Shown here: positions 3,641 to 44,100 of the stretch, piece after piece
How positions within the stretch are numbered: position 1 is the first letter of the stretch
Layout: each line of letters opens with the position of its first letter
NCBI GenBank assembly: GCA_965230935.1
Contig: OZ246400.1
Coordinates: forward strand, 374,359-438,358
Length of the DNA: 64,000 nt
DNA from: an uncultured Gammaproteobacteria bacterium
GTDB lineage: Bacteria; Patescibacteriota; Patescibacteriia; Magasanikbacterales; JBBTQS01
Reading direction: 5' to 3'
The notes under the pieces: model-generated
Told to the model about the DNA's origin: nothing
The model's database searches: none
Seen by the model: the letters and a program-made list of their open reading frames with translations, nothing else
Program-made: the position numbers and the translations under genes

Positions 3641-4937
3641 ATCCGGCTTTTTTAATTTTTCCCAACAAAGCGACATCAGGTAAAGATGGTGTTTTGGAAA
3701 ACTTCACCAAGAAGAAATAATTGACAACCAAAAGCGCAAATAAACTTACCACTGCAGTAATAAAACTCACCTCAAACACTGCCAAGACAAGTGCGAGCGC
3801 ACCATACAAAACAGCTTTAACCACCATACTGGTGGCGTTACGATACATTGATCCACTGAGTGGATCGACTTTTTTTGCACGTTCAAATAAATCACTATCA
3901 AGTGGAATACTCACTAATACACTAAACAGACCAATCAAAAATACGGTCACCATGTAAAACATTGGCTCATCAATACTGAGTCGCAAAATCCACGTTATGG
4001 CAATAAGTCCAGCCCCTAAGGCAATGGTCTTTCCTCGATCAGAACTGTGTACTTTACCGGCAAAATAACTAAAGACAGCAAAGGTGATGGAGATAATCAC
4101 GGGCAGATAGGCCACCGACTCAATTGATCCAAATACGGCGTAAATAAACAGCGGCCAAAGTACATTCTCTGCAGCTCCATGCAGTGCATATAATCCCATG
4201 GAAAGATAGTTTCTCTTTTCCCGCCATCCTTTAAAAAAGGCTTTAAATGTTTTTTGTGGACGAACTGGTATGTCATGTAAATGATCCAATTTGAACAACG
4301 GAACCAATGAAAGGAGCAAAATTACCATGCTGATCGCAACAAGTAACTTTTGTGAAACAAATACCAAAATAAATGCGCCAACCAGTGGTGCGGCAATTCC
4401 GGCAATAGTACGGACAATATAAAAAATACTTGTTCCTTTCCCTGCTCCCCGTTTTTTATTATTGCTTTGGATAAATAGATATAAGTGAGCAACCCAATAA
4501 AACGCATCATATAAGGCCCACAAGGTAGCCAAAAGCACCAAGTTTGGCCAAGAAAAATCCATTTGATAGAACACAAAAAAGAATCCTGCGCTCATGAGCG
4601 TGGCAAAAATAATCACCCACCGCGCACCGATGCGACGAACGAGATCTCGAGAAAAAAAGTTAATAGGAACATTAATGGCATGGATCAAAAAATAAAAAAT
4701 CATTACATCAGTAAGTGATCGACCATTAATCAGGAGCAACACCGGAATAAACACGGCAATGAGTGCGCGTGAAAACACATGCAACCACACTGAAAGTTCA
4801 AATAGCCAAAAATCAGAGTGCATCAGCTTGTACATCTGATTATTGTGGTAGCTATGGAAAAGGTGCATAACTTTTTTGGAGAAATCTGCATGGTAGTATA
4901 CCATGGAAATAGTGTGTTTTTGCACAGTCCATGACAC
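3639..4937 (-). CDS. MFS-type transporter
   Basis: About 12 TM helices with a central loop. True start is probably an internal Met (MHLFHSY... near 4868). The ORF-track N-terminus overlaps the next gene. Confidence 0.6.
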   Translation of the reverse strand: MSWTVQKHTISMVYYHADFSKKVMHLFHSYHNNQMYKLMHSDFWLFELSVWLHVFSRALIAVFIPVLLLINGRSLTDVMIFYFLIHAINVPINFFSRDLVRRIGARWVIIFATLMSAGFFFVFYQMDFSWPNLVLLATLWALYDAFYWVAHLYLFIQSNNKKRGAGKGTSIFYIVRTIAGIAAPLVGAFILVFVSQKLLVAISMVILLLSLVPLFKLDHLHDIPVRPQKTFKAFFKGWREKRNYLSMGLYALHGAAENVLWPLFIYAVFGSIESVAYLPVIISITFAVFSYFAGKVHSSDRGKTIALGAGLIAITWILRLSIDEPMFYMVTVFLIGLFSVLVSIPLDSDLFERAKKVDPLSGSMYRNATSMVVKAVLYGALALVLAVFEVSFITAVVSLFALLVVNYFFLVKFSKTPSLPDVALLGKIKKAG

Positions 4938-5293
4938 AGTGGAGGGAAGACCCGATGAATCGGAAGACGCTTCTTGCGCTTCTGGGCGCTGTGGTCCTCT
5001 TCGCCGCTCCTGCCGTCACCGACACCAACGACCCGGTGATCGACGACACGCAGGGCGACGAGAGTTCGCAAGCCCAGGCCACTCCGGCCAACCCGACCGC
5101 GCCGATGGATGCCGCCCAGGCGACCTGCGACGAGACCGTCGCGAACACCTTCAAGCAGCGGACTACGCGAGACGTGGACCGTGCGGCGACCTCGAGCGAG
5201 GCGATGGCAAGTTGGGCCTGGTGGGCGAACACGCGTGGCGGAGGTCACGCCTCGGCGAGTGCGGCGCTGACCGACACCGGAGGCTGCTGCTGA
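4931..5293 (+). CDS. small secreted protein, GC-rich
   Basis: Signal peptide MNRKTLLALLGAVVLFAAPAV, Ala/Thr/Asp-rich body, ends ...GGCC. Local GC is about 65%, much higher than the flanks. Confidence 0.4.
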   Translation: MTQWREDPMNRKTLLALLGAVVLFAAPAVTDTNDPVIDDTQGDESSQAQATPANPTAPMDAAQATCDETVANTFKQRTTRDVDRAATSSEAMASWAWWANTRGGGHASASAALTDTGGCC

Positions 5294-5527
5294 TCTGACC
5301 CGGCCGCCCTCGGCGTCAGAGCACACACAACACACATACAACAACGGAAGCTACCCTACCGGGACGGCTTTTGTTTTTATATTGAATACTTTGGCGAGCT
5401 GTGCTACACTCGCTCCATCATCGTGTACTCAGACCCAGGAAGGAATACTGAGGCGCATTACCGCAAATGCGTACGATAGCTTGAGAGGTGTTCAGCCCAA
5501 GCAATAAGAGGAGGTTACCGTACTTAC

Positions 5528-6154
5528 ATGACACCCACCTTTGCGGACTTCAGTTGGCTCGTGCTCGCCGCGAAAGAAGAGGTTGTGCACAAGGCCCGTG
5601 CTGACCTTGAGGAGCAATTAAACGAGCTCATGCGGGACTTCATAATGGCCTCGTTGTGTGATCGGGGGATTAGCGAAGATGCCCCGAAAGAAGAGCGCAC
5701 CTTCGAGGTTGATGATCCGAACAACACGCCACTTGGACACGAGGCGCAACAAGCGTTTGCGCCGCTCCAGGCGTTTGTGGACGAACACGATCTCAAGGCG
5801 ACTTATGACGCCGAGCTCAAATTCGTCCCCAATGTGCTCACAACATCGCCTACCACAATAGCGCAGCTCACCATCTGGCGAAATGGCAAGGTCCTGAGAA
5901 AAAAATGCTTCAGGTTACTGGAACAAGTCGGCGCCTTGTACGAGGCATCGACCGGGTGGCTCACGGAGCTGCGTATCCCCAGCCGGGTCGCGGAAGAGCT
6001 GTACGAGAAAATCATCACCCAGCTTTGTGAACTGGCCGGCCTGACACTCGAGGATGGCAAGCTGTTAAACAAGGCGATCGATACGGACGACATGTCCATG
6101 ATACTCTTGCTCATGAGCAAAAGTCTCGGCGGCATGAGCGGTCCGCCACAATAA
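5528..6154 (+). CDS. hypothetical protein (208 aa), moderately GC-rich
   Basis: Intact ORF with no recognised motif. Confidence 0.4.
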   Translation: MTPTFADFSWLVLAAKEEVVHKARADLEEQLNELMRDFIMASLCDRGISEDAPKEERTFEVDDPNNTPLGHEAQQAFAPLQAFVDEHDLKATYDAELKFVPNVLTTSPTTIAQLTIWRNGKVLRKKCFRLLEQVGALYEASTGWLTELRIPSRVAEELYEKIITQLCELAGLTLEDGKLLNKAIDTDDMSMILLLMSKSLGGMSGPPQ

Positions 6155-6225
6155 CACCAAACCAACACACAACCACTACCCCACCCAAGCACGAACGCGA
6201 GGGTGGGGTTGGTGTTTTGGAAAGT

Positions 6226-6278
6226 AAAAACCACCTCTCGGTGGCTTTTCATAATTGTATAGTTATACAAGTTTTGCG
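6226..6278. repeat. direct repeat copy A (terminator hairpin + palindrome + degenerate tRNA-Asp 3' end)
   Basis: aaaaaccacctctcggtggctttt then ttgtatagttatacaagttttgcgg. About 90% identical to 8187-8238. What follows (gagcgatgggacg) weakly resembles the tRNA-Asp 3' end. Confidence 0.6.
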
Positions 6279-6307
6279 GGAGCGATGGGACGTGGTTAGA
6301 ACTTCTT

Positions 6308-6832
6308 TTAGTCTAAATCTCTCTCAACTAACTCTTCTAAGTCTGAGCCACTAAACACACAATGATATTCTTTTGGCTTACCTTTTTTCATCATTCTTGG
6401 TAGAAATGCTGGGATATTGGAAACCACCTCTTTGTTCTTGGAATCACATACCCACTCAAGCGACTTCCATTCTAAGACACCCTCTTCTATTTCCTTCTTT
6501 TTCCAATCTATAAACTCATCTGGAAATTCTGCTATATACGTCGCCATGCCCTTATCTGAATTCCAAGCATCTTCTACTTCAGACCAGGTTACTATTCCAG
6601 CATAATGGATTTCTATTGCAGCTTGGAGACTAAACCCCGCCTCCTCCATCACTTCTCGTCGTACCGCCTCATCTGGCGTCTCTTGCTCTTCAATTTTTCC
6701 ACCAATACCATTCCATTTATACTGATTTGGCGCTCTTTTTCTATAGAGCATTAGGACCTTACCCCTGCTGATGCAAAAACAGATTGTATACGAAGTAGGG
6801 ATAGTCATACTACTTCTTGCACACACAAACAA
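6308..6832 (-). CDS. NUDIX hydrolase
   Basis: Nudix box GGKIEEQETPDEAVRREVMEEAGF (GX5EX7REUXEEXGU). Confidence 0.8.
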   Translation of the reverse strand: MFVCARSSMTIPTSYTICFCISRGKVLMLYRKRAPNQYKWNGIGGKIEEQETPDEAVRREVMEEAGFSLQAAIEIHYAGIVTWSEVEDAWNSDKGMATYIAEFPDEFIDWKKKEIEEGVLEWKSLEWVCDSKNKEVVSNIPAFLPRMMKKGKPKEYHCVFSGSDLEELVERDLD

Positions 6833-7460
6833 TTACCTTAAACTCCTTAATGTCTTTGATATATTGATACTCTGGAACTACAACCGCCTTCTCATTTTCC
6901 TCTAGTCGGTACTGCTCGATCTGCAAGCCTGCATTACTCATTGCACTCTTAAAATCTTCATCTGTTTTAAATAAATCATGGACTATCACATAATCTTTTG
7001 AACCTAATCGCAGGGGCACCTCTGTATTGTGGAGCTCTGAATTTTCAGTGACAAAAGTGTTAAAACTACAAACCAAATAACCACCTTTTCGTAAAACCCT
7101 AAAAATTTCATTGAACGGTTTTTGCAAATCCTTACAATGTTGTATTACAAAGTTGGAAAAAACCAGATCGAAACTATTATCTTCATAAGGCATGTTTGCT
7201 ATATCACCAAGCACAAACCCTGCCCCACAATTCCTCTCTTGAGCACGATTAATCATCGGTTGACTAATATCAATCCCCTTTGCAGAACTCGCACCCTTTT
7301 CTAAAAACTTGCATGCATATCTACCATCACCACAACCAAGATCTAAAACATCTTTATTTTTTACGCCAATATCTCCTAAGAGCTCAAAAATCTTAACATC
7401 GGTGACGTTGTAATCATCACGTGATTCGAGATATTTATCTGTGAGTTCTTTGGAATACAT
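6810..7460 (-). CDS. class I SAM-dependent methyltransferase
   Basis: Motif I VLDLGCGDGRY, with a post-I acidic residue and the overall fold pattern. Confidence 0.75.
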   Translation of the reverse strand: MYSKELTDKYLESRDDYNVTDVKIFELLGDIGVKNKDVLDLGCGDGRYACKFLEKGASSAKGIDISQPMINRAQERNCGAGFVLGDIANMPYEDNSFDLVFSNFVIQHCKDLQKPFNEIFRVLRKGGYLVCSFNTFVTENSELHNTEVPLRLGSKDYVIVHDLFKTDEDFKSAMSNAGLQIEQYRLEENEKAVVVPEYQYIKDIKEFKVIVCVCKK

Positions 7461-8186: not shown

Positions 8187-8260
8187 AAAAACCACCTCTC
8201 GGTGGCTTTCTCTCTTGTATAACTATACAAGTTTTGCGGACCGGACGGGACTCGAACCCG
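8187..8260. repeat. direct repeat copy B plus 27-bp duplicate of tRNA-Asp 3' end (att site of integrative element)
   Basis: 8187-8238 matches 6226-6278. 8234-8260 (ttgcggaccggacgggactcgaacccg) is identical to 21211-21237, the 3' end of the intact tRNA-Asp. Confidence 0.75.
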
Positions 8261-8465
8261 ACCACGTAGAAATATATATTCATCAGTAAATGCAGCCTAA
8301 AGCTGTAAATACCTAGTGAATACAGTGTTTTCTGCAATTCCCATTTGTCTCGCTTGGTCTTATCTTACCCCTCCTTTTCCCATCTCGTGGGCAGTATATG
8401 GGCAGTGCGTCTGGGGAGGGGTATCAATTGCAAGCTAGATTAAACACGCCCCCTACACCTGCTCA

Positions 8466-9464
8466 CTATTTCCCAATCCAATACCTTCCAAACACCTCAC
8501 CTCTAATCTTCCTCCCATTCCCATGCCGTAACATCCCAAGATAGGATTGCAAGGTTTCATTTTTTGGATGCTCAATGATACGTCGCAATGCTCTGCGTTT
8601 TGTCACCGTGCGCAGTGTACGGTGATCTGCAAACAATTTCCAACCAAGAAAATCCACACCAGATGATAAATTTTGAAGATGTATTTTGTTTGGATGCAAG
8701 CAGAGCTGTAGCTTGTCTTGGAGAAATGACTTAACTTTTAGTAGTTGTTCTTCAAGCTGTACTTTGCTGTGAGATAACAATACAAAATCGTCTGCATAGC
8801 GAATATAATACTTTGCCCTGAGTTTATGTTTTACCCACTGGTCAAACTGGTTCATGTAGATATTAGAAAAGAGTTGTGATGTTAGATTACCAAGTGGCAT
8901 ACCCTTTTGACTATTTTCGACTGAGAAACTTGAAATAACATTGTTAAGTAACCAAAGAATATCTGTGTCTGAAATGTATTGCTTAAAGACATTGAGGAGA
9001 ATATCATGATCCACGCTTGCAAAAAACTTACGAATATCGCACTTTAGCACCCAACAGTGTCTGGTATTGTTCTGGCTTACTGTGTACATCATGGCACGGA
9101 ATCTATCTCGTGCTTTTTGGGTTCCTTTGCCAATACGGCAAGAGTACGAGTCTGCGATGAACGTCCTGTCAAAGAATGGATAGAGCATGCGTACAATGGC
9201 ATGGTGTACTAGCCTATCTTGCACACTTGCTTTGTGGATGTGGCGTACTTTTGGATCAGTGATGATAAAGCTATGATAGCCACCATGTCTGTACGTCTTG
9301 TTTACAAGATAGTCATGAAGCGTTAGGATATGATCCATTAGGTTACGTTCAAAGTGTTGGACATCCTTTCTTTTGGATTTACCTACTCTAAACTCACGCC
9401 ATGCAGATAACAGGTTCTCTATGGCAATAATATCTTCAAATGTATGAGTCAATTGAATTTTCAT
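8466..9464 (-). CDS. diversity-generating retroelement reverse transcriptase
   Basis: RT domains including YADD (IRYADDFVLL). The DGR-specific motif-4 variant LGNLTSQ replaces the group II QG motif. It is short (~330 aa) with no maturase or endonuclease domain. Start is probably MKIQL at 9464. Confidence 0.85.
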   Translation of the reverse strand: MKIQLTHTFEDIIAIENLLSAWREFRVGKSKRKDVQHFERNLMDHILTLHDYLVNKTYRHGGYHSFIITDPKVRHIHKASVQDRLVHHAIVRMLYPFFDRTFIADSYSCRIGKGTQKARDRFRAMMYTVSQNNTRHCWVLKCDIRKFFASVDHDILLNVFKQYISDTDILWLLNNVISSFSVENSQKGMPLGNLTSQLFSNIYMNQFDQWVKHKLRAKYYIRYADDFVLLSHSKVQLEEQLLKVKSFLQDKLQLCLHPNKIHLQNLSSGVDFLGWKLFADHRTLRTVTKRRALRRIIEHPKNETLQSYLGMLRHGNGRKIRGEVFGRYWIGK

Positions 9465-9513
9465 AATACACACAAGTCTCCCCCCCCCCAACGCTCTTGA
9501 TGATCTACCAATA

Positions 9514-9834
9514 GTGGTTAAGCTCCAGACAAGCTATAAACACTGGCATGGGTTCTTGGTTCACCTTCCAAGACTCACGAGATACACACTTGGCGTGAAG
9601 ATAGATTCACTCTATACCGATTGCCTTGAGCTAGCACTAAGCGCGGGATATGCGCCAAAAGCAGAGAAGCTGCGCATTATTATGAAGCTAAATACCAAGG
9701 TGGACGCGTTAAAGTTTTTCTTAAGGGTGCTTTGGGATCTAAAAGGACTGGATAATAATAAGTATGTAGTGCTTTCCACACATCTGGCTGAAATAGGCAA
9801 AATGGTTGGCGGATGGATGAAATACCTCAAATAG
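9514..9834 (+). CDS. Avd-like four-helix-bundle accessory protein (23S IVS-protein family)
   Basis: 106 aa. The C-terminus LSTHLAEIGKMVGGWMKYL fits the four-helix-bundle/Avd pattern. Transcribed divergently from the RT. Confidence 0.55.
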   Translation: MVKLQTSYKHWHGFLVHLPRLTRYTLGVKIDSLYTDCLELALSAGYAPKAEKLRIIMKLNTKVDALKFFLRVLWDLKGLDNNKYVVLSTHLAEIGKMVGGWMKYLK

Positions 9835-9882
9835 CTAAACTCCTCCTAATTGCAGGAGTTTATGCATAAATAGACTTGCAGC

Positions 9883-9995
9883 GCGAGGAAGCGGTAGTTG
9901 CGATTCCAGTCGTTGTCGAAGTAGTTGACGTTCAGATCGCGGTTGTCACCGTTCCTGTTGAGCACCAGCACGTGGTGATTGCCGTTGAACACGGG
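9883..9995 (-). repeat. DGR template repeat (TR)
   Basis: 113 bp. Minus-sense translation PVFNGNHHVLVLNRNGDNRDLNVNYFDNDWNRNYRFLA is rich in AAC/AAT codons. All 22 mismatches to the VR fall at TR adenines. Confidence 0.85.
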
Positions 9996-10367
9996 TCACG
10001 CAGTCATGTTATGTATAGTGCCACCTGTGCCACCACCCATTGAATACTCTCTGGGTTGAATCGTATACGAAAGCAAATCTTTCACAGCACTATACACCAA
10101 GTATATTCATGGAAGCATGATGTCAACTCACGAGAGAACACCGTGGTCTTCTCTATTCTGGCGTACACACCGTGCTTAGTCTATAACCGCCCAGAGCCGT
10201 AGCCATGAACTGTTTCATTACAAACCAAGAAAATTGTAGCATAAAAAAACGAAACCCCACATGACGCTTCTTCCGTGTGGAAGTGAATCATGCAGGGTTT
10301 GTCGTGTTGTCCGCCAAGGAAACAAGGGCAAAATCCAAGTGGAAAGTGCCCAAGTGTCCAAGTGCCG

Positions 10368-11039
10368 CTACTTGCAGGCGAGGAAGCGGAAGTCGCGACT
10401 CCAGTCGTAGACGAAGTAGTCGACGCCCAGATCGCGGTCGCCACCGTCCCCGAGGAGCACCAGCACGCGGCGACAGCCGCTGAACACGGGCATCTGCTCG
10501 CTGAGGATGACGATCGGGAACTGACGCTGCAGCTCACCGTGCTGTGCGCCAAACGCCAGACCGTCCGCGATGGTGGGGCGCTTGAGCCCATGCTGGCGCA
10601 TGTACGCGAGCGCGTCCTTGCTGCTGGCGCGGCGGTCGAGGTGCACCAACACCAGCTCGCGCTCCTGACGGTCGGTCTTCTGGATCGGCCAGTGGTGCGC
10701 CTGCTTGTCCTTGACCAGATCGCTCGTCCAGTCGTAGTTACCCGCGTCGCGCAACATCTTGAAACGCTCCACGGGGTCGTCGGACACGGTGCAGTCCACG
10801 ATCGTACGGTAAACCTGTAGACCGAGGGGCTGAGGCGTGATGATCGTCTGCCCCGCCGTGGGCTGCTCACCACCGATGATGCTGCGCTGAGCCGCACGAA
10901 CGGCGTCGCCGAGCGCACTCTTGTCGGAGAGCAGGAGCTGTGCCTGCTCATAGGTGAGATCGGTGAGAGCGAACCCACCAAGGGTGAGAGCCAAATCCTT
11001 GGCCTGACCAGCTGTCATCTGTCGGACTGTCCCACTCAT
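10368..11039 (-). CDS. DGR target (variable) protein, C-terminal CLec-like VR region
   Basis: 223 aa, GC-rich, VR covers the last ~38 codons before the TAG stop at 10368-10370. No obvious signal peptide. Confidence 0.75.
   Translation of the reverse strand: MSGTVRQMTAGQAKDLALTLGGFALTDLTYEQAQLLLSDKSALGDAVRAAQRSIIGGEQPTAGQTIITPQPLGLQVYRTIVDCTVSDDPVERFKMLRDAGNYDWTSDLVKDKQAHHWPIQKTDRQERELVLVHLDRRASSKDALAYMRQHGLKRPTIADGLAFGAQHGELQRQFPIVILSEQMPVFSGCRRVLVLLGDGGDRDLGVDYFVYDWSRDFRFLACK
10378..10490 (-). repeat. DGR variable repeat (VR) at 3' end of target gene
   Basis: 113 bp aligning gap-free with the TR at 91/113 identity, every difference at a TR adenine. Encodes the target C-terminus ...PVFSGCRRVLVLLGDGGDRDLGVDYFVYDWSRDFRFLA. 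Confidence 0.85.
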
Positions 11040-11204
11040 GGGCTATTCCTCCAAAGGTAATAATTGGCTTTTCTATTTGTGCTTACCTAACCGTTAGGCG
11101 CACGAGACAATGCCAGTAAAGAACTTGTGAGAAAGCATAGCATAAATTAGCCATTTTGTCAATGGTTTTGCTAAAATAAAGTAATTTTTGTAAGCCCCCC
11201 ACTC

Positions 11205-11978
11205 TTACTCACTATTTGTATCTATAAGCTGAAGCCTGCAATCTGGGGTTTTAGTATCGCATTCATAACCTATACTTACTTCCAAGATTTCGCCACCTCT
11301 TCTTTGTGTTGATAGAAATGTTTCAAATTGAAACGTTTCTGCGTTTTGTAGGAGTTTGAGCCAATTTTTGTAGGTCGGCTTATTGCTTTCCGAGTAAGGT
11401 ATTGATACAAAAGGTATGTCTGACAAACTGTACAACAATGCCGTCGTACTAGTTGGTGGCACTGCTAAACTTTCGCTTCGCAACAAGTGACCATCTAAAG
11501 GTTGATATGAATAACCATTTACTTCTTTACTTAAAGAAATATAGATACTGTCCCATATTTTAAGTGGCTCTCCATAGTCAACTGAACTATTAACAAATAG
11601 GTATGCATTAGATATTTCCCCTTCGGTCTTGATGAATTTTTTAAACTCCCGACCATAAACTTGACCGTCATCATCCACCCAACTAGGAGTAGTTGTTACA
11701 AGCTCAAGTTTGGTTAGCTTTTTGAAAAAGTTAAAGTCTGGATACTTAGTTATAGACTCTTCGCTTGCTTTGTGGTCAATTTGCTTCTTTACCACCTCTT
11801 CAATTTCTGTTTCTGAAACTTGATTCAACCCTAAATCTTTCCTGAGCCAATCAATACCTAAGTCTACTAATTGAATTATGGTTACAGTTAGTGTCACGAC
11901 CACAATAAAAATTACTATTGGGTATATAATCTTTTTTAACTCGTTAGCCATCTTCTTCTCTTTATTTTTTTCAGACAT
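11205..11978 (-). CDS. hypothetical protein with N-terminal TM anchor
   Basis: 257 aa with one N-terminal hydrophobic helix, then a soluble domain. Confidence 0.45.
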   Translation of the reverse strand: MSEKNKEKKMANELKKIIYPIVIFIVVVTLTVTIIQLVDLGIDWLRKDLGLNQVSETEIEEVVKKQIDHKASEESITKYPDFNFFKKLTKLELVTTTPSWVDDDGQVYGREFKKFIKTEGEISNAYLFVNSSVDYGEPLKIWDSIYISLSKEVNGYSYQPLDGHLLRSESLAVPPTSTTALLYSLSDIPFVSIPYSESNKPTYKNWLKLLQNAETFQFETFLSTQRRGGEILEVSIGYECDTKTPDCRLQLIDTNSE

Positions 11979-11980
11979 AT

Positions 11981-12391
11981 CTACTTTTCATTTCGAAATT
12001 GTTTGTCTCCATACAACAGCAAATTCACAGACATCAATAACCAAAAACATTGTTTAGTTAATTTGTGGTTTAATTCAAATAGAGTTTGCCAACGTAATAC
12101 TTTGTTTGCTTTGATGGCGGAGAGTGAACCTACTACCATTATTAATAATAGAATTTTAAGCCCAACTGAATCGTCTTCGGTGATACGGGTGATCACTCTA
12201 TCTAAAAAACCACCCAAAAACAAGTTGAGTAGCACGAAGACGAGAACTAGATTTATGATTTGAAGTACAAAAGTCTTCTTTTTTATGAGAAAACTGTTAA
12301 AGAATGGTTTAAAATAAGACAAAAAAGAGGACATCATCTCCGTCCACAGTTCACCATGATTACTATATTTGTACCTGTTTTTAGGGTTCAT
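11981..12391 (-). CDS. small membrane protein
   Basis: 136 aa with 3 predicted TM helices. Tightly coupled to the downstream gene. Confidence 0.4.
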   Translation of the reverse strand: MNPKNRYKYSNHGELWTEMMSSFLSYFKPFFNSFLIKKKTFVLQIINLVLVFVLLNLFLGGFLDRVITRITEDDSVGLKILLLIMVVGSLSAIKANKVLRWQTLFELNHKLTKQCFWLLMSVNLLLYGDKQFRNEK

Positions 12392-12580
12392 TTTTCTTCC
12401 ACATCCTTTTTACCACATTTTTAATCTGATTTCCATAACATGAAGAATGGCTTAATTGAATTTTTAGATTTATATTCTATGTTTTTACACGCTTTCACTG
12501 ACGTATATTTTTAAGCCAGTAATCGAAAAGGATTGCTGATATTTTCTCAGCAATCTCGTTTTGTGTATCATCATCCATAC

Positions 12581-13714
12581 TTAATGGTTTGTACTCTTAA
12601 ATACTTCAAAAGAATCTAGCTTAGTAAAATCAATCTCAAAAGTACTGTCTTCATTCTTGTAAAGCACAACACTATCAAGTCCAATTTCTTGCAATTTATC
12701 ATAAGTAACGAGTTCCCCCTCTTTTAATCTCAAAATATCACGGAGTATCCACGTACCAAGTTTAATGTTCGGATTGCTCATAAGGGCTTTTGACCCATCC
12801 TGACAAACCTTCGCGCTAATGGTCTCACCATTTGGCAATTTAAGATCAAATGGTTCATCCCTTGGAGGGAAAAATTTAGGGAACTTCTTGTGAATCCATT
12901 TAGGTATTGGAATATACACTTCGTTTGCGTGGCGAGCACGTCCGCCAGCATTCCACTGATTAAGTCCGCTCTTAGTAGGTACTTCGCCCTGTGTTCGCGT
13001 AGAGTAAAGAGGGAGGAAGACGTGCGTCTGTTTTTTGATTGGAGCAAAATGCAGTGTTTCTCTAACTTCTAGAAACATTTTTTCTAATTCATCAAATGGG
13101 TCATCAAGTATTCTCGTGCTTAGTTCTAGTATATGTGGTGGTGTGATAAATCTCTTAAAGAGAGTACTCTTAGTCAGGTTAAGTGTGTATTCGTTTTTGG
13201 CGTCTCTAAAGTAGATTGTGTTCCCATTTTTGCTTGGTGAAATTCCACCAATCTTATCAATGTTGATCGTATCCATTTCAGTTTCATACACAAAAATCCT
13301 TCTAGGAGCTCGCGTCACGCAGTGGTAGATCATTGAGTCTAGCCCATGGATCGTTTTTGTAGCTTCAATTCGTCTGTTTCTCATCTCTGCCACTCGTAAC
13401 ACCTTGCTTTCAATATCTAGATCTCGAAATGTCTTCGCTTCCTTGTTGAACTCAGCAACTTTTTGTAGTGAGGCGCTATTTTTCTCTAGAAATGTTTTTA
13501 TACCAATACCAACGTTGTCTTTTGAGGCATCGGCAGAAACATCTGAACGGGAAAGGTTCTTGGCATCAAACGATCTACAGAAAAGATTTTCAGCAATTCG
13601 ATATTGGATGTACGGCTCCTCACCATCAGAGAATAGACGAGAAAGAGAACCGATGGTTGTCAGCATCGTCTGGTAGTACTGGAGTGACTTTTTTGTTTGG
13701 CTTTCAAGGAACAT
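12581..13714 (-). CDS. type II restriction endonuclease candidate
   Basis: Start ATG at 13712-13714, directly 3' of the MTase TAG (tagtATG). Size and position fit the cognate REase of the adjacent m5C MTase. No named motif recognised. Confidence 0.5.
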   Translation of the reverse strand: MFLESQTKKSLQYYQTMLTTIGSLSRLFSDGEEPYIQYRIAENLFCRSFDAKNLSRSDVSADASKDNVGIGIKTFLEKNSASLQKVAEFNKEAKTFRDLDIESKVLRVAEMRNRRIEATKTIHGLDSMIYHCVTRAPRRIFVYETEMDTINIDKIGGISPSKNGNTIYFRDAKNEYTLNLTKSTLFKRFITPPHILELSTRILDDPFDELEKMFLEVRETLHFAPIKKQTHVFLPLYSTRTQGEVPTKSGLNQWNAGGRARHANEVYIPIPKWIHKKFPKFFPPRDEPFDLKLPNGETISAKVCQDGSKALMSNPNIKLGTWILRDILRLKEGELVTYDKLQEIGLDSVVLYKNEDSTFEIDFTKLDSFEVFKSTNH

Positions 13715-13715
13715 A

Positions 13716-14681
13716 CTATGCCTGTAAAGCCTTAAAGATATTTTTCGCGATTCTTCTAATGACTGGAACAGAGACAGAGTTACCGAACTGCTTGTACAAG
13801 GCAGAGTCAGGAAGGTCATCTGGTAGCTTGATGTTGAAGAAGCCCTGTATTCTTGCACATTCAAGAGGGGTTAGTTTTCGTATACCCTTCTTGTCTTTGA
13901 CAATCGGTACATTATGACCACCCATTCCCATGTTTGCAGTAAGTGTTGGGCAGACACTTTTTTTGTTTTCTCTCACATATTTGCGCCTCCATTGATAGAC
14001 CGTGTCAGTGGAAGTAACATGATTTTTTAATTTTTTGAACAATGGTTTGCCATTGTAGTAGTACTTTTCATCAACCTCTTTTTCGAGTAGTTGTTTGAAA
14101 TTCTTTGATAGTGGGATCTTTCTTGGGAATACAAAATGTTCGAATGCTTTTTTATTTTTAAAGCCTACTATATATATGCGTTCCCTGTTTTGTGGAAGGT
14201 TTCCATGTAGCATGGTGTTGAGTACCGCTTCTGTGACGTGATATCCCTCACCTTCTAGAGATTGCTTTATGGTTTTGTAAGTCCTGCCACCATCATGCCC
14301 TTTGAGATTTTTAACATTTTCAAGAAATACAAAGTTTGGTTTTTTCTCTGAAACTATATCCATAATTCTGAAGAAAAGATTTCCTCTGCCTTTCTTGTCC
14401 TTGAATCCCTTTCTATACCCGGCAACTGAAAATGGCTGACATGGGAAGCCACCCAACAAGCCGTCAAATTTTTTTGGTAATTGTGTTAACTCAACTTCAT
14501 TAATGTCTTTGATCACTAATTTAGGGTCGGAAAAATTGAGATCATAAGTAGTTTTGCAGTGACGTTCATAATCATTAGCAAAAAGTGTGGTGAAACCCTC
14601 TTGCTCAAAACCCAGTCGTATTCCACCAACACCAGCAAAAAGATCAATAGTGGTGTAGCCTCTATTTTTAGATTTGTACAT
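13716..14681 (-). CDS. DNA (cytosine-5)-methyltransferase
   Basis: Motif I DLFAGVGG, motif IV GFPCQPFS, motif VI ENVKNL, motif X QFGNSVSVPV. Confidence 0.9.
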   Translation of the reverse strand: MYKSKNRGYTTIDLFAGVGGIRLGFEQEGFTTLFANDYERHCKTTYDLNFSDPKLVIKDINEVELTQLPKKFDGLLGGFPCQPFSVAGYRKGFKDKKGRGNLFFRIMDIVSEKKPNFVFLENVKNLKGHDGGRTYKTIKQSLEGEGYHVTEAVLNTMLHGNLPQNRERIYIVGFKNKKAFEHFVFPRKIPLSKNFKQLLEKEVDEKYYYNGKPLFKKLKNHVTSTDTVYQWRRKYVRENKKSVCPTLTANMGMGGHNVPIVKDKKGIRKLTPLECARIQGFFNIKLPDDLPDSALYKQFGNSVSVPVIRRIAKNIFKALQA

Positions 14682-14944
14682 AAAAAGACGACTTATCTTT
14701 TGATAAGCCGCCGAGAAGCCTCTCTAGAGTGGACGACCCGACGGGTCTACACACTCACAGAACGCAAAGCGCCTGATCGTGTACCGCGAGTCGCCCGCTG
14801 TAATTCACGATCAGGAACCAGTGCATTCTGGCTCTTAACGTTTCTGTAAGTGTGTAGACAAAGCCATCTTAGCAAATGTATTAAGTAATGGGAATAGGGG
14901 TTGATTTTTCTTTGATTTTTAGTAATCTTTAGGAAAGAATAAAT

Positions 14945-16132
14945 ATGAACATAAATAAACTAGGCTCAGAAGAGTTATTTCTCTACAAATTTTTTATATT
15001 GCAAGATCCAGAATTCTTTGAGCAAGAATTCACTCTTGTGGATTTGGCAAAAAATTCCAACCTGAGTTTCAAAATTGTTTTCCGTACTCTATTGAAGATG
15101 GTTAAATCTGGTCATGTCAGTTTTCTGAAGTGTTATTTGCAGGAAAGTTACATAGACAAGCATCTCAAGAAGAAGGAAGCACTTATAGAAAAAGAAAATC
15201 GAAAATCTGTGGCGAGCATGTCTGGTGGTTTTCTTGTGCAAGAGACAAAACAAAGAACATCAAAAGAAGATAAGTATTGTGGTTTGCCAAAAGACCATTA
15301 TGATAAGCTTCAGAAAGATGGAGTGCTCCATTTGGGTCTAAGTGACGACGAGGTTATGAGTAATTTGGAGGGAGTTTCAGAAGATCTGGTCCTCCAGAGT
15401 CTTATTTTTAAGATTAAGATTAATGAAGGATTGCTTGATTTTATGAAGAGGTATTCCTTTGCAATCATCAACGATGAATTCGCGGATGGACGGAAACTCA
15501 GTTATCTCGCTCAAAAGAAAGGTCTTGCTACCGAGATAGGCACCCAAATACACATGGGATTCCCGTTGAAGGGGGTACGACTTAATTCAACGGATGTGCT
15601 ATTTGGAAAAAAGAATAATCCTTTACAATCCCCGCCATTTTTTAGTTTTTTGCATACGTTGGTAGGTATGGAGGCTGAGGGGTTGATAACTATTCGAAGG
15701 ATAGAATATCCTCAACCACTCAGGGTCCCAGTTGTTATCACATCTGAATTAAAAGATTGGCACCCATTGCATGTTTTACTATCTGCAGACCCTAAGAAAT
15801 TTGTAAAATATTACAATGAGGAGGTTGTCCAGAAAGATGATGTCTCAACCCCGCTTTTTAGATTCGTGGATGGTGTTTTCTTTAGGGATGGTGAATCTTG
15901 TGTTCTAAAATTTAATGAAAAAACTCTTGAATACAATGTGCTTGCCGTGGCGTTTAATAAGGAGTTTGGTGAGAAAATAGACATGGCGGTACGGGGCATA
16001 GATGCCTCCAGCTGGAAGCAGTTGCGTGATACTGTAGATAGACTAAATAAAAAGATCGCGCCAAGCTTTGGTATTGGAGATTTCTTTGAGATTATACACT
16101 CAGATAAACATTTTTACAGAAGAGTACACTGA
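14945..16132 (+). CDS. hypothetical protein (395 aa), element cargo
   Basis: Intact ORF with N-terminal HTH-like segment. Function unknown; could be a replication or regulatory protein. Confidence 0.45.
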   Translation: MNINKLGSEELFLYKFFILQDPEFFEQEFTLVDLAKNSNLSFKIVFRTLLKMVKSGHVSFLKCYLQESYIDKHLKKKEALIEKENRKSVASMSGGFLVQETKQRTSKEDKYCGLPKDHYDKLQKDGVLHLGLSDDEVMSNLEGVSEDLVLQSLIFKIKINEGLLDFMKRYSFAIINDEFADGRKLSYLAQKKGLATEIGTQIHMGFPLKGVRLNSTDVLFGKKNNPLQSPPFFSFLHTLVGMEAEGLITIRRIEYPQPLRVPVVITSELKDWHPLHVLLSADPKKFVKYYNEEVVQKDDVSTPLFRFVDGVFFRDGESCVLKFNEKTLEYNVLAVAFNKEFGEKIDMAVRGIDASSWKQLRDTVDRLNKKIAPSFGIGDFFEIIHSDKHFYRRVH

Positions 16133-16224
16133 TGAGTGATTTCACTCACCGGTGACTCACGCTAAATAGGTTAAGCTCACGCTGTGGGCTTTTTTGATTT
16201 AAAAAACAATTAACAAATCTAATT

Positions 16225-16497
16225 ATGAAACGAAATATCAATTACAAATATTTGGAAGATAGAGAAAATTACTTTTCGACCTATGATCTGGGATGTGTGT
16301 CTTCCCTAGTTAGTGTTGGGCACAGGATTTTTCACACAGAGAAAGTTGGGGGGACCAGTCGTGTTTTGTTTGTCTTTGAAATGACTGATGAGATTCTGAT
16401 GGATTCACAAAAATATTGGTCGGGAGAGCTTGAGGTGGATGCTCAGACGTACTTTAACACCCTAAAGAATTTAAAGAGCAGAATCTATTCCACATAA
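16225..16497 (+). CDS. hypothetical protein (90 aa)
   Basis: Co-directional small ORF in the element. Confidence 0.3.
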   Translation: MKRNINYKYLEDRENYFSTYDLGCVSSLVSVGHRIFHTEKVGGTSRVLFVFEMTDEILMDSQKYWSGELEVDAQTYFNTLKNLKSRIYST

Positions 16498-16600
16498 ATA
16501 ATGCTCACTGACGAAATGGTCGAGGAGTACCGCGAGCTGTACCGCAAACAATACATAGACCGATCCTAAAAAGGGAAATAACTAACCAATAAAAATTATT

Positions 16601-16825
16601 ATGAAATCACTTGAACGACGATTCCAACGAATCCTAAAAAAACAAACTGGCTGGAGTACCTACCTTTGCTTTGCTAATGCCGTAAAGGGACAGTGCTTCC
16701 GCAAACGCACAATACAGTACTGGTTCAGCAAACTTGTCGAACCAAAAGACTACAGCCTCGGTGACAAAAAACAGATTGTTAACTTCTTGCACCACATCTC
16801 AAATGAGCGTGAGGACGGCACATAA
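16601..16825 (+). CDS. hypothetical protein (74 aa)
   Basis: Co-directional small ORF in the element. Confidence 0.3.
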   Translation: MKSLERRFQRILKKQTGWSTYLCFANAVKGQCFRKRTIQYWFSKLVEPKDYSLGDKKQIVNFLHHISNEREDGT

Positions 16826-16906
16826 TGAGGGCTATTTTGCCCGCTCCGTTCTTGTTTAAGCCGCAGGTACACCAAGTGCCATAAACCTAAAAATTACTTA
16901 ATTAGT

Positions 16907-19099
16907 ATGAGTTCCAGAACAATGAACATTACCCAATATCTCACTGAAAAAGACATTGAATTCACAACAGCGAATGGTGAGCTAGTCACAAAATGCCTAT
17001 TCAATGGCTGTGATGATGACAGCAGACCAAATGAGCGCCATCTTTATTTTGATGCTGAAACCAGCCAATACGACTGCAAAAAGTGTGGACAGCAAGGCAA
17101 CCTAATTACTCTTGCTAGACACTTTGGAGACACACTCAGCAACAAACAACCATCACAAAAAAAGACCGTTAAAAAACGGAGAAAAAACGCTAGTATCACC
17201 ATTGAACAGGTGGAGCAGTGCTATGACGCATTACCTGAGAATATCAGACAATATCTACACAATCGTGGGATCAATGACGACCTTATCAATCACTTCAAAA
17301 TTGGCTGGGGTGAATTCTACAATAAGTACTGGATAACCATCCCCATCAAGAACAAGGATGGAGATTTTGTATTCTTCAAATTACGTCGTGACCCCCAATC
17401 AGAGCAGGGCAATAAATACCAATTTTACCCCACAGGTAGCGAGTCAACACTTTTTGGATGGGATATGTTCAAGGGCAACCAAGATATGGTAATGATCTGC
17501 GAGGGAGAATTTGATGCAATGCTACTGCAAAGCATCGGTATCCCTGCAATCACGTCTACAGCAGGTGTGGGAACGTTCAAACAAGATTGGATTACCAGCC
17601 TCAAAAAATTAAGAAAGATATATATTTGCTTTGATACTGACGATGCAGGAATAAAAGGAGCAGAAACCCTAATCAAAAAACTCGACCAAGAACTGGGCAA
17701 TAGAACAACAATCTACAAAACCTCCCTGCCAGAACGCATGAAAAAAGGTAAGGACGTAACTGATTACATCACAAAGTACAATGGCAACCCAGACGAACTT
17801 ACAAAAGAATGTTCTACCTATGCTGGCGGACGTAAGCCCATTGATACCAGTAAATTCAAACCACTTACATCTGATGATGTCGTGCGTGTACTTGGTCTTA
17901 CTATTAAAAAAGACGAGGAAAATAAATTGATCACGTTCCTTTGCGCTCTCTCTGCGTATACAGAACAATCCCAATTTAACCTTAGCTTCAACGCACCATC
18001 ATCGACTGGAAAAAGTTTTATTCCAATGGAAGTATCTACTCTTTTTCCCGCTGAGGACGTTATGAAACTTGGTGACTGCTCACCTAAAGCTTTTTTTCAT
18101 GAGCAAGGTGAATATGACAAAGAGACCAATACCATGCTTGTTGACCTATCAAGAAAGATACTTATTTTCCTTGACCAACCACACAACAGCCTCCTTGAAC
18201 GTCTCCGTTCCCTATTGTCACACGACCAAAAGGAAATGATCTCCAAGATCACTGATAAGAATCAGCGAGGCGGTAACAGAACCAAGACTGTTATCCTACG
18301 CGGCTATCCAGCCGTCATCTTCTGTAGTGCAGGTCTTAAAATTGACGAGCAAGAAAGCACACGTTTTATCCTGCTCTCACCACAAACCAACCAAGAAAAA
18401 CTGCGTTTTGCAATACAAGAAAAGATTAAGAAAGAATCAGATTATGACGCATATAGAGATAGCCTAAACGCAAATCCAGAACGTGCCTTACTGAAGGAAC
18501 AAATTGAAGCAATTAGAGACGAAAACATTGATGAAATACGCATTGAAAATCCAGAGATCATTGAGCAAGAATTCTTCTCCAAAAGGGATAAGCTCAAGCC
18601 ACGTCATCAACGTGATATTGGCAGACTTATGGGGCTAACCAAGATTTTTGCACTGCTCAATGTGTGGTTTCGTGAACGAGATGGATCAACCATTGTGGCA
18701 ACTCAAAAAGATTTTGAAGAAGCACTTAAGCTCTGGAATAAAATCTCTGAAAGCCAAGAATACAACCTACCCCCTTACGTTTATGAACTGTACAAGGATG
18801 TAATCATACCCGCTTTTGATGAAAAGAATGCAGACCGCCTACCTGCTGCTGAGCCTATTGGAGTCACAAGAAAGGAAATACTACAAAAGCACTACGAGGT
18901 GTACGGAAGAATGGTACAAGACTGGCAACTACGACAGCAGATCATCCCCATGCTTGAAACCGCAGGGCTGTTGTCACAAGACCCCGACCCAGATGATAAG
19001 CGAAGAATACTCATTACTCCTACAGATAAACTCGCAAAAATAGATATGGTGAGTGACACTGGGGAGCTAGAGTTTCCACCAGAAATAACAGGTGATTAA
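16907..19099 (+). CDS. DNA primase / P-loop NTPase (primase-helicase) of mobile element
   Basis: N-terminal Cys4 zinc finger (CLFNGC...CKKCG). Toprim motifs (MICEGEFDAM...ICFDTDDAG). Downstream Walker A NAPSSTGKSF. Confidence 0.75.
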   Translation: MSSRTMNITQYLTEKDIEFTTANGELVTKCLFNGCDDDSRPNERHLYFDAETSQYDCKKCGQQGNLITLARHFGDTLSNKQPSQKKTVKKRRKNASITIEQVEQCYDALPENIRQYLHNRGINDDLINHFKIGWGEFYNKYWITIPIKNKDGDFVFFKLRRDPQSEQGNKYQFYPTGSESTLFGWDMFKGNQDMVMICEGEFDAMLLQSIGIPAITSTAGVGTFKQDWITSLKKLRKIYICFDTDDAGIKGAETLIKKLDQELGNRTTIYKTSLPERMKKGKDVTDYITKYNGNPDELTKECSTYAGGRKPIDTSKFKPLTSDDVVRVLGLTIKKDEENKLITFLCALSAYTEQSQFNLSFNAPSSTGKSFIPMEVSTLFPAEDVMKLGDCSPKAFFHEQGEYDKETNTMLVDLSRKILIFLDQPHNSLLERLRSLLSHDQKEMISKITDKNQRGGNRTKTVILRGYPAVIFCSAGLKIDEQESTRFILLSPQTNQEKLRFAIQEKIKKESDYDAYRDSLNANPERALLKEQIEAIRDENIDEIRIENPEIIEQEFFSKRDKLKPRHQRDIGRLMGLTKIFALLNVWFRERDGSTIVATQKDFEEALKLWNKISESQEYNLPPYVYELYKDVIIPAFDEKNADRLPAAEPIGVTRKEILQKHYEVYGRMVQDWQLRQQIIPMLETAGLLSQDPDPDDKRRILITPTDKLAKIDMVSDTGELEFPPEITGD

Positions 19100-19122
19100 C
19101 TGGAGCATACTAAAAAATCATC

Positions 19123-19794
19123 TTGATAAAAAATCAAAATTCTCTAATGATTTCGGCATCCAGAAATATGGCACGCTATTACTACAACAAAAAAGAAGAG
19201 GCTGACGACCTGAGAAAAATTGAGATATGGACGCTCAAAAAATGGGGGTATTTAGGAACATCTCGATCTGGAACCATCACATGGACTCACGGTTTTAGCG
19301 GCAAGAAGAATAGTGTAGGCATACAAACGATATTCTGGAGTAGCAACCCACAACTACGCATACACTACACACAAACTGATTGGCAGACAGATGAGAAAAA
19401 AGACTTTGACTATCAAATTCCGTTAGTCACTACACCTTGCAACTTGGGCGGAAAACGATACTGGTTTCAATGTCCTTGGTATAAAAATGGTGTGTACTGT
19501 GGAAAGCGTGTTGGTGTGATCTACAAAGGTGGAGACTATTTCGCCTGTAGACATTGCTACGACCTGAGTTATGCAAGCAAGAATGTAAACAGACACTACA
19601 GATTATTTGCGTATGGTCAGATGCTTGATCTGGAAGAGAAAATCAGAAAACTAGAGGACGAAGTAACAACTCAATACTACAACGGACGTCCTACCCGTAA
19701 GTACAGACGACTATTGGAGCTAAAGAGAAGATATTACGGCTTTGATATTGATGCTGTTCTTGAAAATATGGAAAAACTACTTAAAAACACGTAA
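19123..19794 (+). CDS. hypothetical protein with Cys-rich zinc-ribbon-like segment
   Basis: CPWYKNGVYCGKR...CRHCYDLSY. Confidence 0.45.
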   Translation: MIKNQNSLMISASRNMARYYYNKKEEADDLRKIEIWTLKKWGYLGTSRSGTITWTHGFSGKKNSVGIQTIFWSSNPQLRIHYTQTDWQTDEKKDFDYQIPLVTTPCNLGGKRYWFQCPWYKNGVYCGKRVGVIYKGGDYFACRHCYDLSYASKNVNRHYRLFAYGQMLDLEEKIRKLEDEVTTQYYNGRPTRKYRRLLELKRRYYGFDIDAVLENMEKLLKNT

Positions 19795-19853
19795 AATGAG
19801 TAGTGCCTACGAGATTATATCTCACAGACGCACTGCTCTATACAACTAAATCA

Positions 19854-20078
19854 ATGTCAAAAGAGTCGACACAATTGATGACCGTAAAAGACGTCTGTGA
19901 ATTCCTAAGAATTTCCAAATCAGCAGTCTACAGACTAACTGATCGCCGTGAAGTTCCCTTCTATAGGATTCGCAGTGGCTTGAGATTCAAGAAGTCAGAT
20001 CTACTTTCCTACTTGGAAAATTGTCGACTTGAGGCAATAAATGAACATGAATATGGCAGTGCGAATAATAGATCGTAA
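19854..20078 (+). CDS. excisionase/AlpA-like HTH DNA-binding protein
   Basis: MTVKDVCEFLRISKSAVYRLTDRREVPFYRIRSGLRFKKSDLLSYLE is the MerR-type excisionase helix-turn-helix. Sits immediately upstream of the integrase. Confidence 0.6.
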   Translation: MSKESTQLMTVKDVCEFLRISKSAVYRLTDRREVPFYRIRSGLRFKKSDLLSYLENCRLEAINEHEYGSANNRS

Positions 20079-21177: not shown

Positions 21178-21213
21178 AAGAAAAAACTCCTCTCGGAGTT
21201 AAATCTTTCCTTG

Positions 21214-21287
21214 CGGACCGGACGGGACTCGAACCCGCGACCTCCGCCGTGACAGGGCGGCATTCTAACCAGCTGAACTACCGGTCC
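21214..21287 (-). tRNA. tRNA-Asp (anticodon GTC)
   Basis: Manual fold: acceptor GGACCGG/CCGGTCC, D-arm, anticodon stem CCGCC/GGCGG with loop CTGTCAC, T-arm GCGGG-TTCGAGT-CCCGT. CCA is not encoded. Confidence 0.9.
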
Positions 21288-44099: not shown

Positions 44100-44100
44100 A

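Follow-up and report, generated by a model that had tools for sequence, protein, structure and literature searches.

Does a reverse transcriptase gene found beside two imperfect repeats in the DNA of an uncultured bacterium belong to a complete diversity-generating retroelement (DGR), and if so, to which type of DGR, and how would the element operate in its host? The locus in question lies at positions 8466 to 11039 of a 64,000-nt stretch of DNA (positions 374,359 to 438,358 of contig OZ246400.1, assembly GCA_965230935.1), which as a whole is hereafter referred to as the window. An earlier note on this DNA, made from its letters alone, had proposed a complete DGR consisting of a reverse transcriptase (RT), the accessory protein Avd, a template repeat (TR), a variable repeat (VR) and a target gene, and in the present analysis every defining part that can be tested in silico was indeed present. 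With a probability of roughly 90%, we regard the locus as an intact DGR of the type known in the CPR (Candidate Phyla Radiation, or Patescibacteria), carried on an island of ~13 kb at a tRNA-Asp gene. The core parts of the element are given below.

8466..9464, minus strand: DGR reverse transcriptase, 332 aa from the ATG at 9464, the open reading frame (ORF) reaching to a TTG at 9491 (Pfam RVT_1, 6e-27)
9514..9834, plus strand: Avd accessory protein, 106 aa (Pfam bAvd PF22296, 44.3 bits, cut-off 40)
9874..9995, minus strand: TR, with its core at 9883-9995; the homology runs to 9874 beyond a 1-nt insertion
10370..10490, minus strand: VR, with its core at 10378-10490, ending at the target stop codon
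10368..11039, minus strand: target gene, 223 aa, 64% GC, with a predicted C-type-lectin/formylglycine-generating-enzyme (FGE)-like C-terminal domain; the VR is its C-terminus

Realignment of the two repeats confirmed the positions that had been assigned to them on the minus strand (TR 9883-9995 and VR 10378-10490, 113 nt each, without gaps), and corrected the number of mismatches to 19, with 94/113 positions identical, from the 22 mismatches and 91/113 identity that had been claimed. As had been stated, every mismatch fell on an adenine of the TR (T on the plus strand), namely 19 out of 19 with 29 adenines among the 113 positions (hypergeometric P = 1.2e-14). The changes from TR to VR comprised 13 A>G, five A>T and one A>C, and all 19 changed adenines were assigned by the codon table to codon positions 1 or 2. 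The richness of the TR in AAC and AAT codons was likewise borne out by the count (eight AAC and two AAT). Its 29 adenines are spread over 19 codons, 10 of which are AAY, and these adenine-bearing codons would allow ~1e17 protein variants (15^10 x 4^8 x 3, by arithmetic on the codon table).

The VR encodes, as had been noted, the last 38 residues of the 223-aa ORF, but the homology does not end at the limit given previously: it extends 8 nt further in the 3' direction, through the T of the stop codon, and in doing so spans a 1-nt insertion in the TR (TR CTCGCgCTGCAAGT versus VR CTCGC-CTGCAAGT). The ends of the two repeats, which are IMH-like (initiation of mutagenic homing), differ in the window, the VR reading ...CTCGC-CTGCAAGT up to the boundary and AG past it, and the TR reading ...CTCGCgCTGCAAGT and then CT. 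Across the class of related cassettes described below, the corresponding ends are CGCAAG followed by TAG in the VR and CG(C/A)AAC followed by TCT in the TR. Moreover, an inverted-repeat hairpin and a repeat array follow the VR only, not the TR. As read from the sequence, this arrangement corresponds to the IMH/IMH* difference of DGRs, with the inverted repeat 3' of the VR only.

The RT motifs LGNLTSQ and YADD, reported previously for the ORF at 8466-9464 of the minus strand, were both recovered. The closest PDB match of the RT was 8ub7_A, bRT of the Bordetella phage BPP-1 DGR (2e-38 over residues 9-310, 30% identity), the group II intron and retron RTs in the PDB reaching only ~1e-22. LGNLTSQ was aligned on IGSLTSQ of bRT, and an arginine of the window RT on R74 of bRT. 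The [I/V/L]GxxxSQ motif is the signature of DGR RTs, replacing QGxxxSP, and both R74 and I181 of bRT are functionally important, two residues having been shown to promote adenine mutagenesis (PMC7826257). The RT further matched PHROG 1423 (4e-105) and, in tblastn, the DGR RTs of phage genomes, BPP-1 brt among them. Profile searches, which the earlier note had named as a check, grouped the window RT with BPP-1 bRT, with the SQ motif kept; by its [I/V/L]GxxxSQ and YxDD motifs, the RT is a member of the DGR clade. As a separate observation, a homopolymer upstream of the RT gene overlaps its likely ribosome-binding site, and the sister locus L001 has G7AG3 in the same place; the tract could be either a slippage-prone switch or an assembly-sensitive stretch.

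9480..9489, no strand: C10/G10 homopolymer within the 49-bp divergent avd-RT intergenic region

For the Avd-like ORF that had been proposed between RT and TR, Pfam (bAvd) and PHROG (PHROG 3206, 'Avd protein of DGR', 8e-17) agreed, and by these profile matches the accessory gene of a DGR is present. Its strand had been left unstated: avd was found to sit on the plus strand, whereas RT, TR, VR and target are all on the minus strand; the order of the elements is target-VR, spacer, TR, inverted avd and RT. The same inverted position was observed in the related loci L001, L004 and L005 and in 53 of 60 metagenome loci. In the classification of Wu et al. (2018, PMC5758913), the order TR-(avd)-RT in which avd is reversed is termed architecture B3; 90% of the DGRs of CPR bacteria have it, and it is almost missing elsewhere. 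DGR clade 2 of Roux et al. (2021, PMC8144416) is CPR-restricted and cell-encoded, and its targets are without transmembrane or other recognisable domains. The window element fits both the B3 architecture of Wu et al. and the CPR clade of Roux et al., and DGRs of exactly this layout are already well documented in CPR bacteria. With the CPR/DPANN-type (B3) DGRs it shares the gene order, the inverted avd, a patescibacterial host, a C-terminal VR and adenine-specific TR/VR differences, together with a small cellular target that has no transmembrane segment and no recognised domain. Nothing essential differs from these elements, the window copy being located on a tRNA-Asp island with an integrase, a primase and restriction-modification genes.

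The comparison with the BPP-1 DGR, the prototype of these elements, revealed an Avd partner, adenine mutagenesis, a target with the predicted C-type-lectin fold and a C-terminal VR as shared properties, as well as RT homology over the full length with [I/V/L]GxxxSQ, YxDD and R74. Common to both, too, are a 3' boundary that is IMH-like and rich in GC, and the presence of an inverted repeat 3' of the VR but not of the TR. In contrast, the order in BPP-1 is mtd-avd-TR-brt, whereas avd in the window is inverted and placed between TR and RT, not upstream of the TR, and the window element is cellular rather than a phage tail-fibre system.

A C-type-lectin/FGE fold had been expected for the C-terminus of the target, and a confident structural model bore this out, matching C-type-lectin/FGE folds only, including those of the DGR variable proteins TvpA and Mtd. 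The model thus suggests that the variable domain has the C-type-lectin fold of DGR targets; Foldseek on a first model of the target gave no significant match. The target matched no Pfam, NCBIfam or PHROG family, and no meaningful Pfam match was obtained for the 49 family members scanned. A word-indexed homologue search returned nine relatives only and gave the impression of a rare family, which was overturned when 1.84 billion cluster representatives were searched with a profile: the family is large, because 6574 representatives were retrieved at E<=1e-3, 953 of them at E<=1e-30. For the locus search, the 9-sequence target alignment was used, the 49-sequence alignment being too diverse. Compared with Treponema denticola TvpA and other FGE/C-type-lectin DGR proteins, the window target shows no detectable sequence similarity, and unlike the TvpA-type proteins it has no Pfam FGE-sulfatase or DUF1566 match. 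Its domain, at ~150 aa, is much smaller than that of the TvpA type, and no lipoprotein or secretion signal was seen by eye. Apart from this, the family members P0010-P0018, P0020, P0023 and P0042, 320-640 aa in length, each have two to three matched stretches, so that the target domain is present in tandem.

Cassettes with their parts in this order were found in L001/L002, L004 and L005, in ~15 of the 62 loci from genomes and in most of the 80 from metagenomes. The TR/VR mismatches were adenine-specific in 21 of 21 cases in L004 and in 23 of 26 in L005, and 49 independent metagenome cassettes together displayed 598 mismatches at adenine sites versus 13 at others. The class-wide spectrum of changes was A>G 59%, A>T 25% and A>C 16%, and 752 mutable adenines lay at codon positions 1-2 versus 57 at position 3. 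The sister cassette L001 is 85.6% identical to that of the window at the nucleotide level over 2.7 kb. The VRs of the two differ at 19 of the 27 sites that are adenine in both TRs and at 9 of the 86 other sites (Fisher 4e-9), and at six of these nine non-adenine sites each VR has the base of its own TR. Since each VR follows its own TR at these six sites, transfer from TR to VR after the split of the lineages is required; in a related lineage, information has passed from the TR into the VR.

Among these relatives, L005 was observed to carry its family DGR (3667-7381) within an operon for ribosomal proteins, where it separates the genes of S8 and L6; its RT is divided between two ORFs. Wu et al. 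(2018, PMC5758913) mention five DGRs of CPR bacteria that are interleaved with genes for ribosomal proteins.

Besides the core parts, the following features were identified around the TR, past the target stop codon and upstream of the target.

9837..9861, minus strand: stem-loop past the TR, AAACUCCU-GCAAUU-AGGAGGAGUUU, 12 nt past the TR end
9989..10105, minus strand: three-helix RNA domain, the leader of the TR RNA, ~115 nt, directly 5' of the TR
10100..10126, minus strand: possible promoter of the TR RNA, TTGACA-N15-TATACT, as read from the sequence
10243..10303, minus strand: long hairpin with a U7 run, terminator-like, the inverted repeat 3' of the VR (minimum free energy z = -3.96 for the spacer)
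10305..10367, minus strand: array of YCTTGG units with a period of ~8 nt, directly 3' of the stop codon (TRF period 8 at 10344-10366)
11134..11162, minus strand: sigma-70-like promoter upstream of the target, TTGACA-17-TATGCT with TG, a consensus match only (10/12)

The leader domain was characterized by covariation. RNAalifold applied to 16 genome loci gave 25 pairs in three helices, with compensatory double changes at 20 of these pairs; 96.8% of the cells were paired as compared with 35-53% when the partners were slid, and 0 of 500 shuffles reached the observed scores. The covariance model R1 had a single match in the window, at 9989-10105, with 101 bits. The sequence pattern of the domain matched at least 120 metagenome contigs, and in all 80 of the contigs examined the covariance model matched over its full length, with 58-115 bits. 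Among 76 distinct sequences, in an alignment fitted to the model and with one helix partly fixed by the search pattern, 96.9% of the cells pair and 425 cells carry double changes. Among the loci with room for these genes, the domain was followed by an inverted avd in 53 of 60 and by an RT in 44 of 51. In the relatives it was located at 1163-1275 of L001, 1073-1196 of L004 and 5167-5277 of L005, and in L076-L155. It was not found in five phage DGR loci, nor in target loci without a linked RT. Rfam 15 gave no match at E<=1 within 9400-11200, so that the domain is without an Rfam family, and at the Rfam gathering thresholds the whole window yielded tRNA and rRNA only. In one contig, L081, two copies of the TR-leader domain were seen, at 4159-4279 and 6526-6641, ~2.4 kb apart.

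On the other side of the TR, folding of each sequence placed a hairpin at the post-TR position in 14-15 of the 16 loci from genomes and in all 48 from metagenomes, its sequence being specific to each locus. Some 10 nt past the TR stands the conserved UC(G/U)CUU(C/U)AUU(C/U), with the GC-rich variable hairpin and often a U-tract after it (9837-9882 in the window); the motif UCGCUUCAUUC is named among the elements of the TR RNA beside the helices P1-P3 and the 3' stem-loop. MAFFT with RNAalifold gave no consensus for the hairpin region, the stems varying in sequence and length. In BPP-1, an Avd-binding stem-loop lies directly past the TR, and such a stem-loop has been predicted in 207 of 278 DGRs including those of CPR (Handa et al., bioRxiv 10.1101/2023.10.23.563531). 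Because Handa et al. place these stem-loops just 3' of the TR, the post-TR stem-loop is, by analogy, likely to bind Avd, to form the 3' end of the TR RNA, or both.

According to the same study, the BPP-1 primer, the 'cPRT stop' and an RT-binding stem-loop are all contained in a 140-nt spacer 3' of the TR, and just 40 nt upstream of the TR were covered in the other DGRs (Handa et al., bioRxiv 10.1101/2023.10.23.563531). Compared with BPP-1, the window has no room for a 3' spacer of ~140 nt, the distance from the TR to the avd stop being ~48 nt with one stem-loop, and it has instead the structured ~115-nt domain 5' of the TR. As there is no room for a Bordetella-like 3' spacer, it may be supposed that the 5' domain supplies the missing functions. 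Retron msr-msd RNA offers an analogy only, in that a structured RNA 5' of the template gives RT recognition and, in retrons, the priming 2'-OH. No homology is involved, the retron RT models scoring far below their cut-offs, and no msr/msd-like inverted repeats were found, though no search was aimed at them. Separately, an ACUUG:CAAGU pairing that appeared in the minimum-free-energy fold of the whole TR RNA was discarded as not conserved, most relatives having CAAC at the TR end and keeping ACUUGG.

Past the target stop codon, CTTGG was the top non-homopolymer 5-mer in the 90 nt examined at 64 loci, and the autocorrelation of the array gave z = 13 at lag 8 and z = 5.6 at lag 16; elsewhere in the window, the YCTTGG motif was not enriched. 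The array was observed in the 64 nt past the stop codon of most CPR target loci (e.g., L013, L021, L030, L036 and L042). It follows VRs, those of many targets without a linked RT included, and does not follow TRs; the RT-unlinked targets with an array may be trans targets. Past the array, the related loci have a comparable hairpin and T-run. The array was absent in the high-GC non-CPR target homologues.

With respect to base composition, the target and the TR had been put at ~62% GC in a host of ~42%. The target does reach 64%, whereas the TR has 56% and the VR 68%; the window overall has 46%, and the island 38-41%. Neither is the contrast one of cassette versus host, as had been thought, for the target alone is GC-rich (0.641, with 0.826 at third codon positions), RT (0.395) and avd (0.436) being AT-rich. 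In the window as well as in L001, L004, L005, L009-L070 and L076-L155, the target GC lay 11-23 points above that of the host or flanks. In cassettes chosen by their RNA motif, the target exceeded the RT in 38 of 38 (means 0.557 vs 0.395) and the flank in 32 of 32 (0.556 vs 0.444), and in the genome set a GC excess was found in 46 of 49 loci, larger for the RT-linked copies. At 4-fold sites outside the VR, sense-strand A amounted to 0.137 versus 0.225 in control ORFs, some of which may be spurious, and T to 0.283 versus 0.329; the AT skew at these sites was reduced in 24 of the 29 loci (p = 3e-5). A at 4-fold sites climbs as one moves away from the stop codon (0.041, 0.099, 0.149, 0.119, 0.205), T staying flat and C compensating. 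Selection against mutable adenines beyond the VR and past shifts of the VR boundary are candidate causes. Spill-over mutagenesis is another candidate, weakened by the fact that C and not G replaces the lost A.

Several other accounts of the composition were rejected or found no support. Simple erosion by A>G was, in that form, not supported as the cause of the GC excess, the A lost at 4-fold sites being replaced mainly by C, and an assembly chimera is at odds with the recurrence of the contrast in more than 80 independent contigs. Nor is the contrast a general property of DGRs, five phage DGRs having targets at the GC of their neighbours. As a side observation, target homologues at host GC were seen in L006, L041, L049, L053 and L066, which belong to high-GC metagenome-assembled genomes (MAGs; Gaiellales, Actinomycetota and others); no TR repeat, RT or YCTTGG array was present within their fetched flanks.

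The composition could alternatively reflect a recent horizontal acquisition, in which the GC-rich target and TR came from a donor of high GC and were added to an RT-avd core that is AT-rich. Members of the target family in high-GC Actinomycetota, Rokubacteria and Planctomycetota MAGs do stand at host GC without TR and array, and the codon usage of the target resembles that of a high-GC organism. However, the contrast is universal across cassettes (the 38/38, 32/32 and 46/49 given above), and the targets of different cassettes are 25-30% identical to one another, so that a separate recent transfer would be needed for each. Moreover, no close relative of the target in a high-GC host was found in the databases searched, three target relatives having 68-77% identity in the best segment (57-77% globally) and all others remaining below ~40%. 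The high GC ends at the boundaries of the target ORF, and the loss at 4-fold sites is mainly one of sense-strand A, graded with distance from the VR. Taken together, we consider such a recent transfer rather unlikely.

The identity of the element itself was weighed in the same manner. That the locus is no DGR, and that the RT of a group II intron or retron lies by chance beside a duplicated gene fragment, would be in line with the top NCBIfam match of the RT, the group II intron RT/maturase model TIGR04416. This match, at 152.8 bits, is far under the cut-off of 300, and the RT has LGNLTSQ, not QGxxxSP; the match to BPP-1 bRT is better by 16 orders of magnitude than that to any group II intron or retron RT. 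Rfam detected neither intron nor retron RNA in the window, the retron model retron_St85_RT scored 62 versus a cut-off of 235, and a decaying duplicate would not give adenine-only divergence (P = 1e-14); the probability of this explanation is accordingly close to nil. The locus might rather be a DGR relic, in which the parts are still recognisable, mutagenic retrohoming has stopped and the VR is a frozen record. Two observations suit a relic and at the same time weigh against an intact DGR: the target protein is identical in L003, the only other assembly with the exact target, and L001 has five non-adenine TR/VR mismatches, as if its TR and VR were beginning to drift. To be counted against the intact DGR as well are the score of Avd against NCBIfam DivGenRetAVD, 70.2 bits with a cut-off of 80, the lack of a sequence-level PDB match for Avd, and the failure of a promoter scan to pick up TTGACA-N15-TATACT, with its 15-nt spacer. 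Nevertheless, RT, Avd and target are full-length ORFs with intact catalytic motifs, the window TR and VR are without a non-adenine mismatch in 113 nt, the 101 bits of the 5' RNA domain are inside the range of the other cassettes, and two sister lineages each have bases specific to their own TR in the VR. A relic is thus quite improbable, and an intact DGR remains the reading that we adopt.

The placement of the cassette within a tRNA-integrated island, also proposed before, was confirmed by the finding of an att-like repeat, a tRNA-Asp gene and an integrase.

8234..8260, no strand: distal island boundary, a 27-nt direct repeat of the tRNA-Asp 3' end, TTGCGGACCGGACGGGACTCGAACCCG, identical to 21211-21237
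20041-21177, plus strand: island integrase, a tyrosine integrase adjoining tRNA-Asp (Phage_integrase, 4e-33)
21213-21287, minus strand: tRNA-Asp, proximal island boundary (ARAGORN and Rfam)

The island (8234-21287, ~13 kb) has 38-41% GC versus 45-54% for the remaining window, and the DGR is located at its far end. ARAGORN detected no complete tRNA at ~8240, beside the cassette, where the 27-nt att-like repeat alone is present. Apart from the DGR, the cargo comprises a Toprim primase, an NgoFVII-like restriction enzyme with a C5 methylase, and two unknown membrane ORFs; among the island ORFs scanned, none was recognisable as a gene for a capsid or another part of a virion. Essentially nothing has been known of the association of CPR DGRs with mobile elements (Wu et al., 2018, PMC5758913).

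The named relatives of the FtsZ encoded in the window were all from Patescibacteria, Magasanikbacteria or Parcubacteria, and since these relatives are confined to Patescibacteria/CPR and the window lies on a contig of 931 kb, the host is taken to be a CPR bacterium. The loci of the target family were likewise mostly in CPR MAGs. Several carry other names: L001 and L009 (Zetaproteobacteria MAG) have the full RT-avd cassette of this mostly-CPR target family, and L010-L013, L037, L038, L044, L059 and L063 are members deposited under 'uncultured Gammaproteobacteria' MAG names. These proteobacterial labels on contigs of a CPR family are likely due to mis-binning or mislabelling. Elsewhere in the window, the minus strand at 33927-46002 contains a giant surface-protein locus typical of CPR bacteria and with no relation to the DGR, in which a 3390-aa ORF precedes a protein of 633 aa with T4SS-pilin and Ig-like domains.

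The boundaries of the RNA, its promoter, the way in which the cDNA is primed, present-day activity and a ligand are inferred for this DGR, and the proposed sequence of events would be as follows. A non-coding RNA of ~270 nt would be made from the minus strand, from ~10105 to 9835, containing the three-helix 5' domain, the 122-nt TR and the 3' stem-loop. An RT-Avd complex would reverse-transcribe the TR, misincorporating opposite its 29 adenines, and the resulting cDNA would replace the VR, that is, the last 38 codons of the 223-aa target with its predicted C-type-lectin fold. The 3' limit of the replacement would lie at the stop codon, where the GC-rich boundary CGCTTCCTCGC...CTGCAAGT is found, and up to 19 codons would be recoded.

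To our knowledge, how the cDNA is primed and how the target site is recognised has been worked out for just one phage DGR. More tentatively, and with somewhat less than even odds for the statement as a whole, the template RNA of the CPR B3 DGRs may be laid out in a manner unlike that of Bordetella: the covarying 5' domain of ~100 nt would take over the RT-binding and possibly the priming roles, as suggested by analogy; the RNA would end at the stem-loop and U-tract ~45 nt past the TR; the YCTTGG array beside the CGCAAGT core of the IMH would mark target sites; and the target ORF would be kept GC-rich and poor in sense-strand A, either by selection against collateral adenine mutagenesis or by spill-over. 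No description of the 5' domain, the array or the composition was found in Rfam or in the literature searched, although Paul et al. (2017, Nat Microbiol) might mention some of them, and none of these three class-wide features has an established mechanism.

The window thus provides a clean and complete reference copy of a CPR-type DGR on a closed 931-kb contig, and its setting on a tRNA-Asp island bears on how the DGRs of CPR bacteria move. What merits the attention of specialists is the RNA domain, together with the array and the gradient in composition. The 5' domain, the motif on the IMH side and the short 3' end are elements that can be tested separately in the largest natural group of DGRs, and the GC and adenine composition of the target could serve as a cheap marker of DGR targets in CPR genomes, or could be a record of mutagenesis outside the VR.

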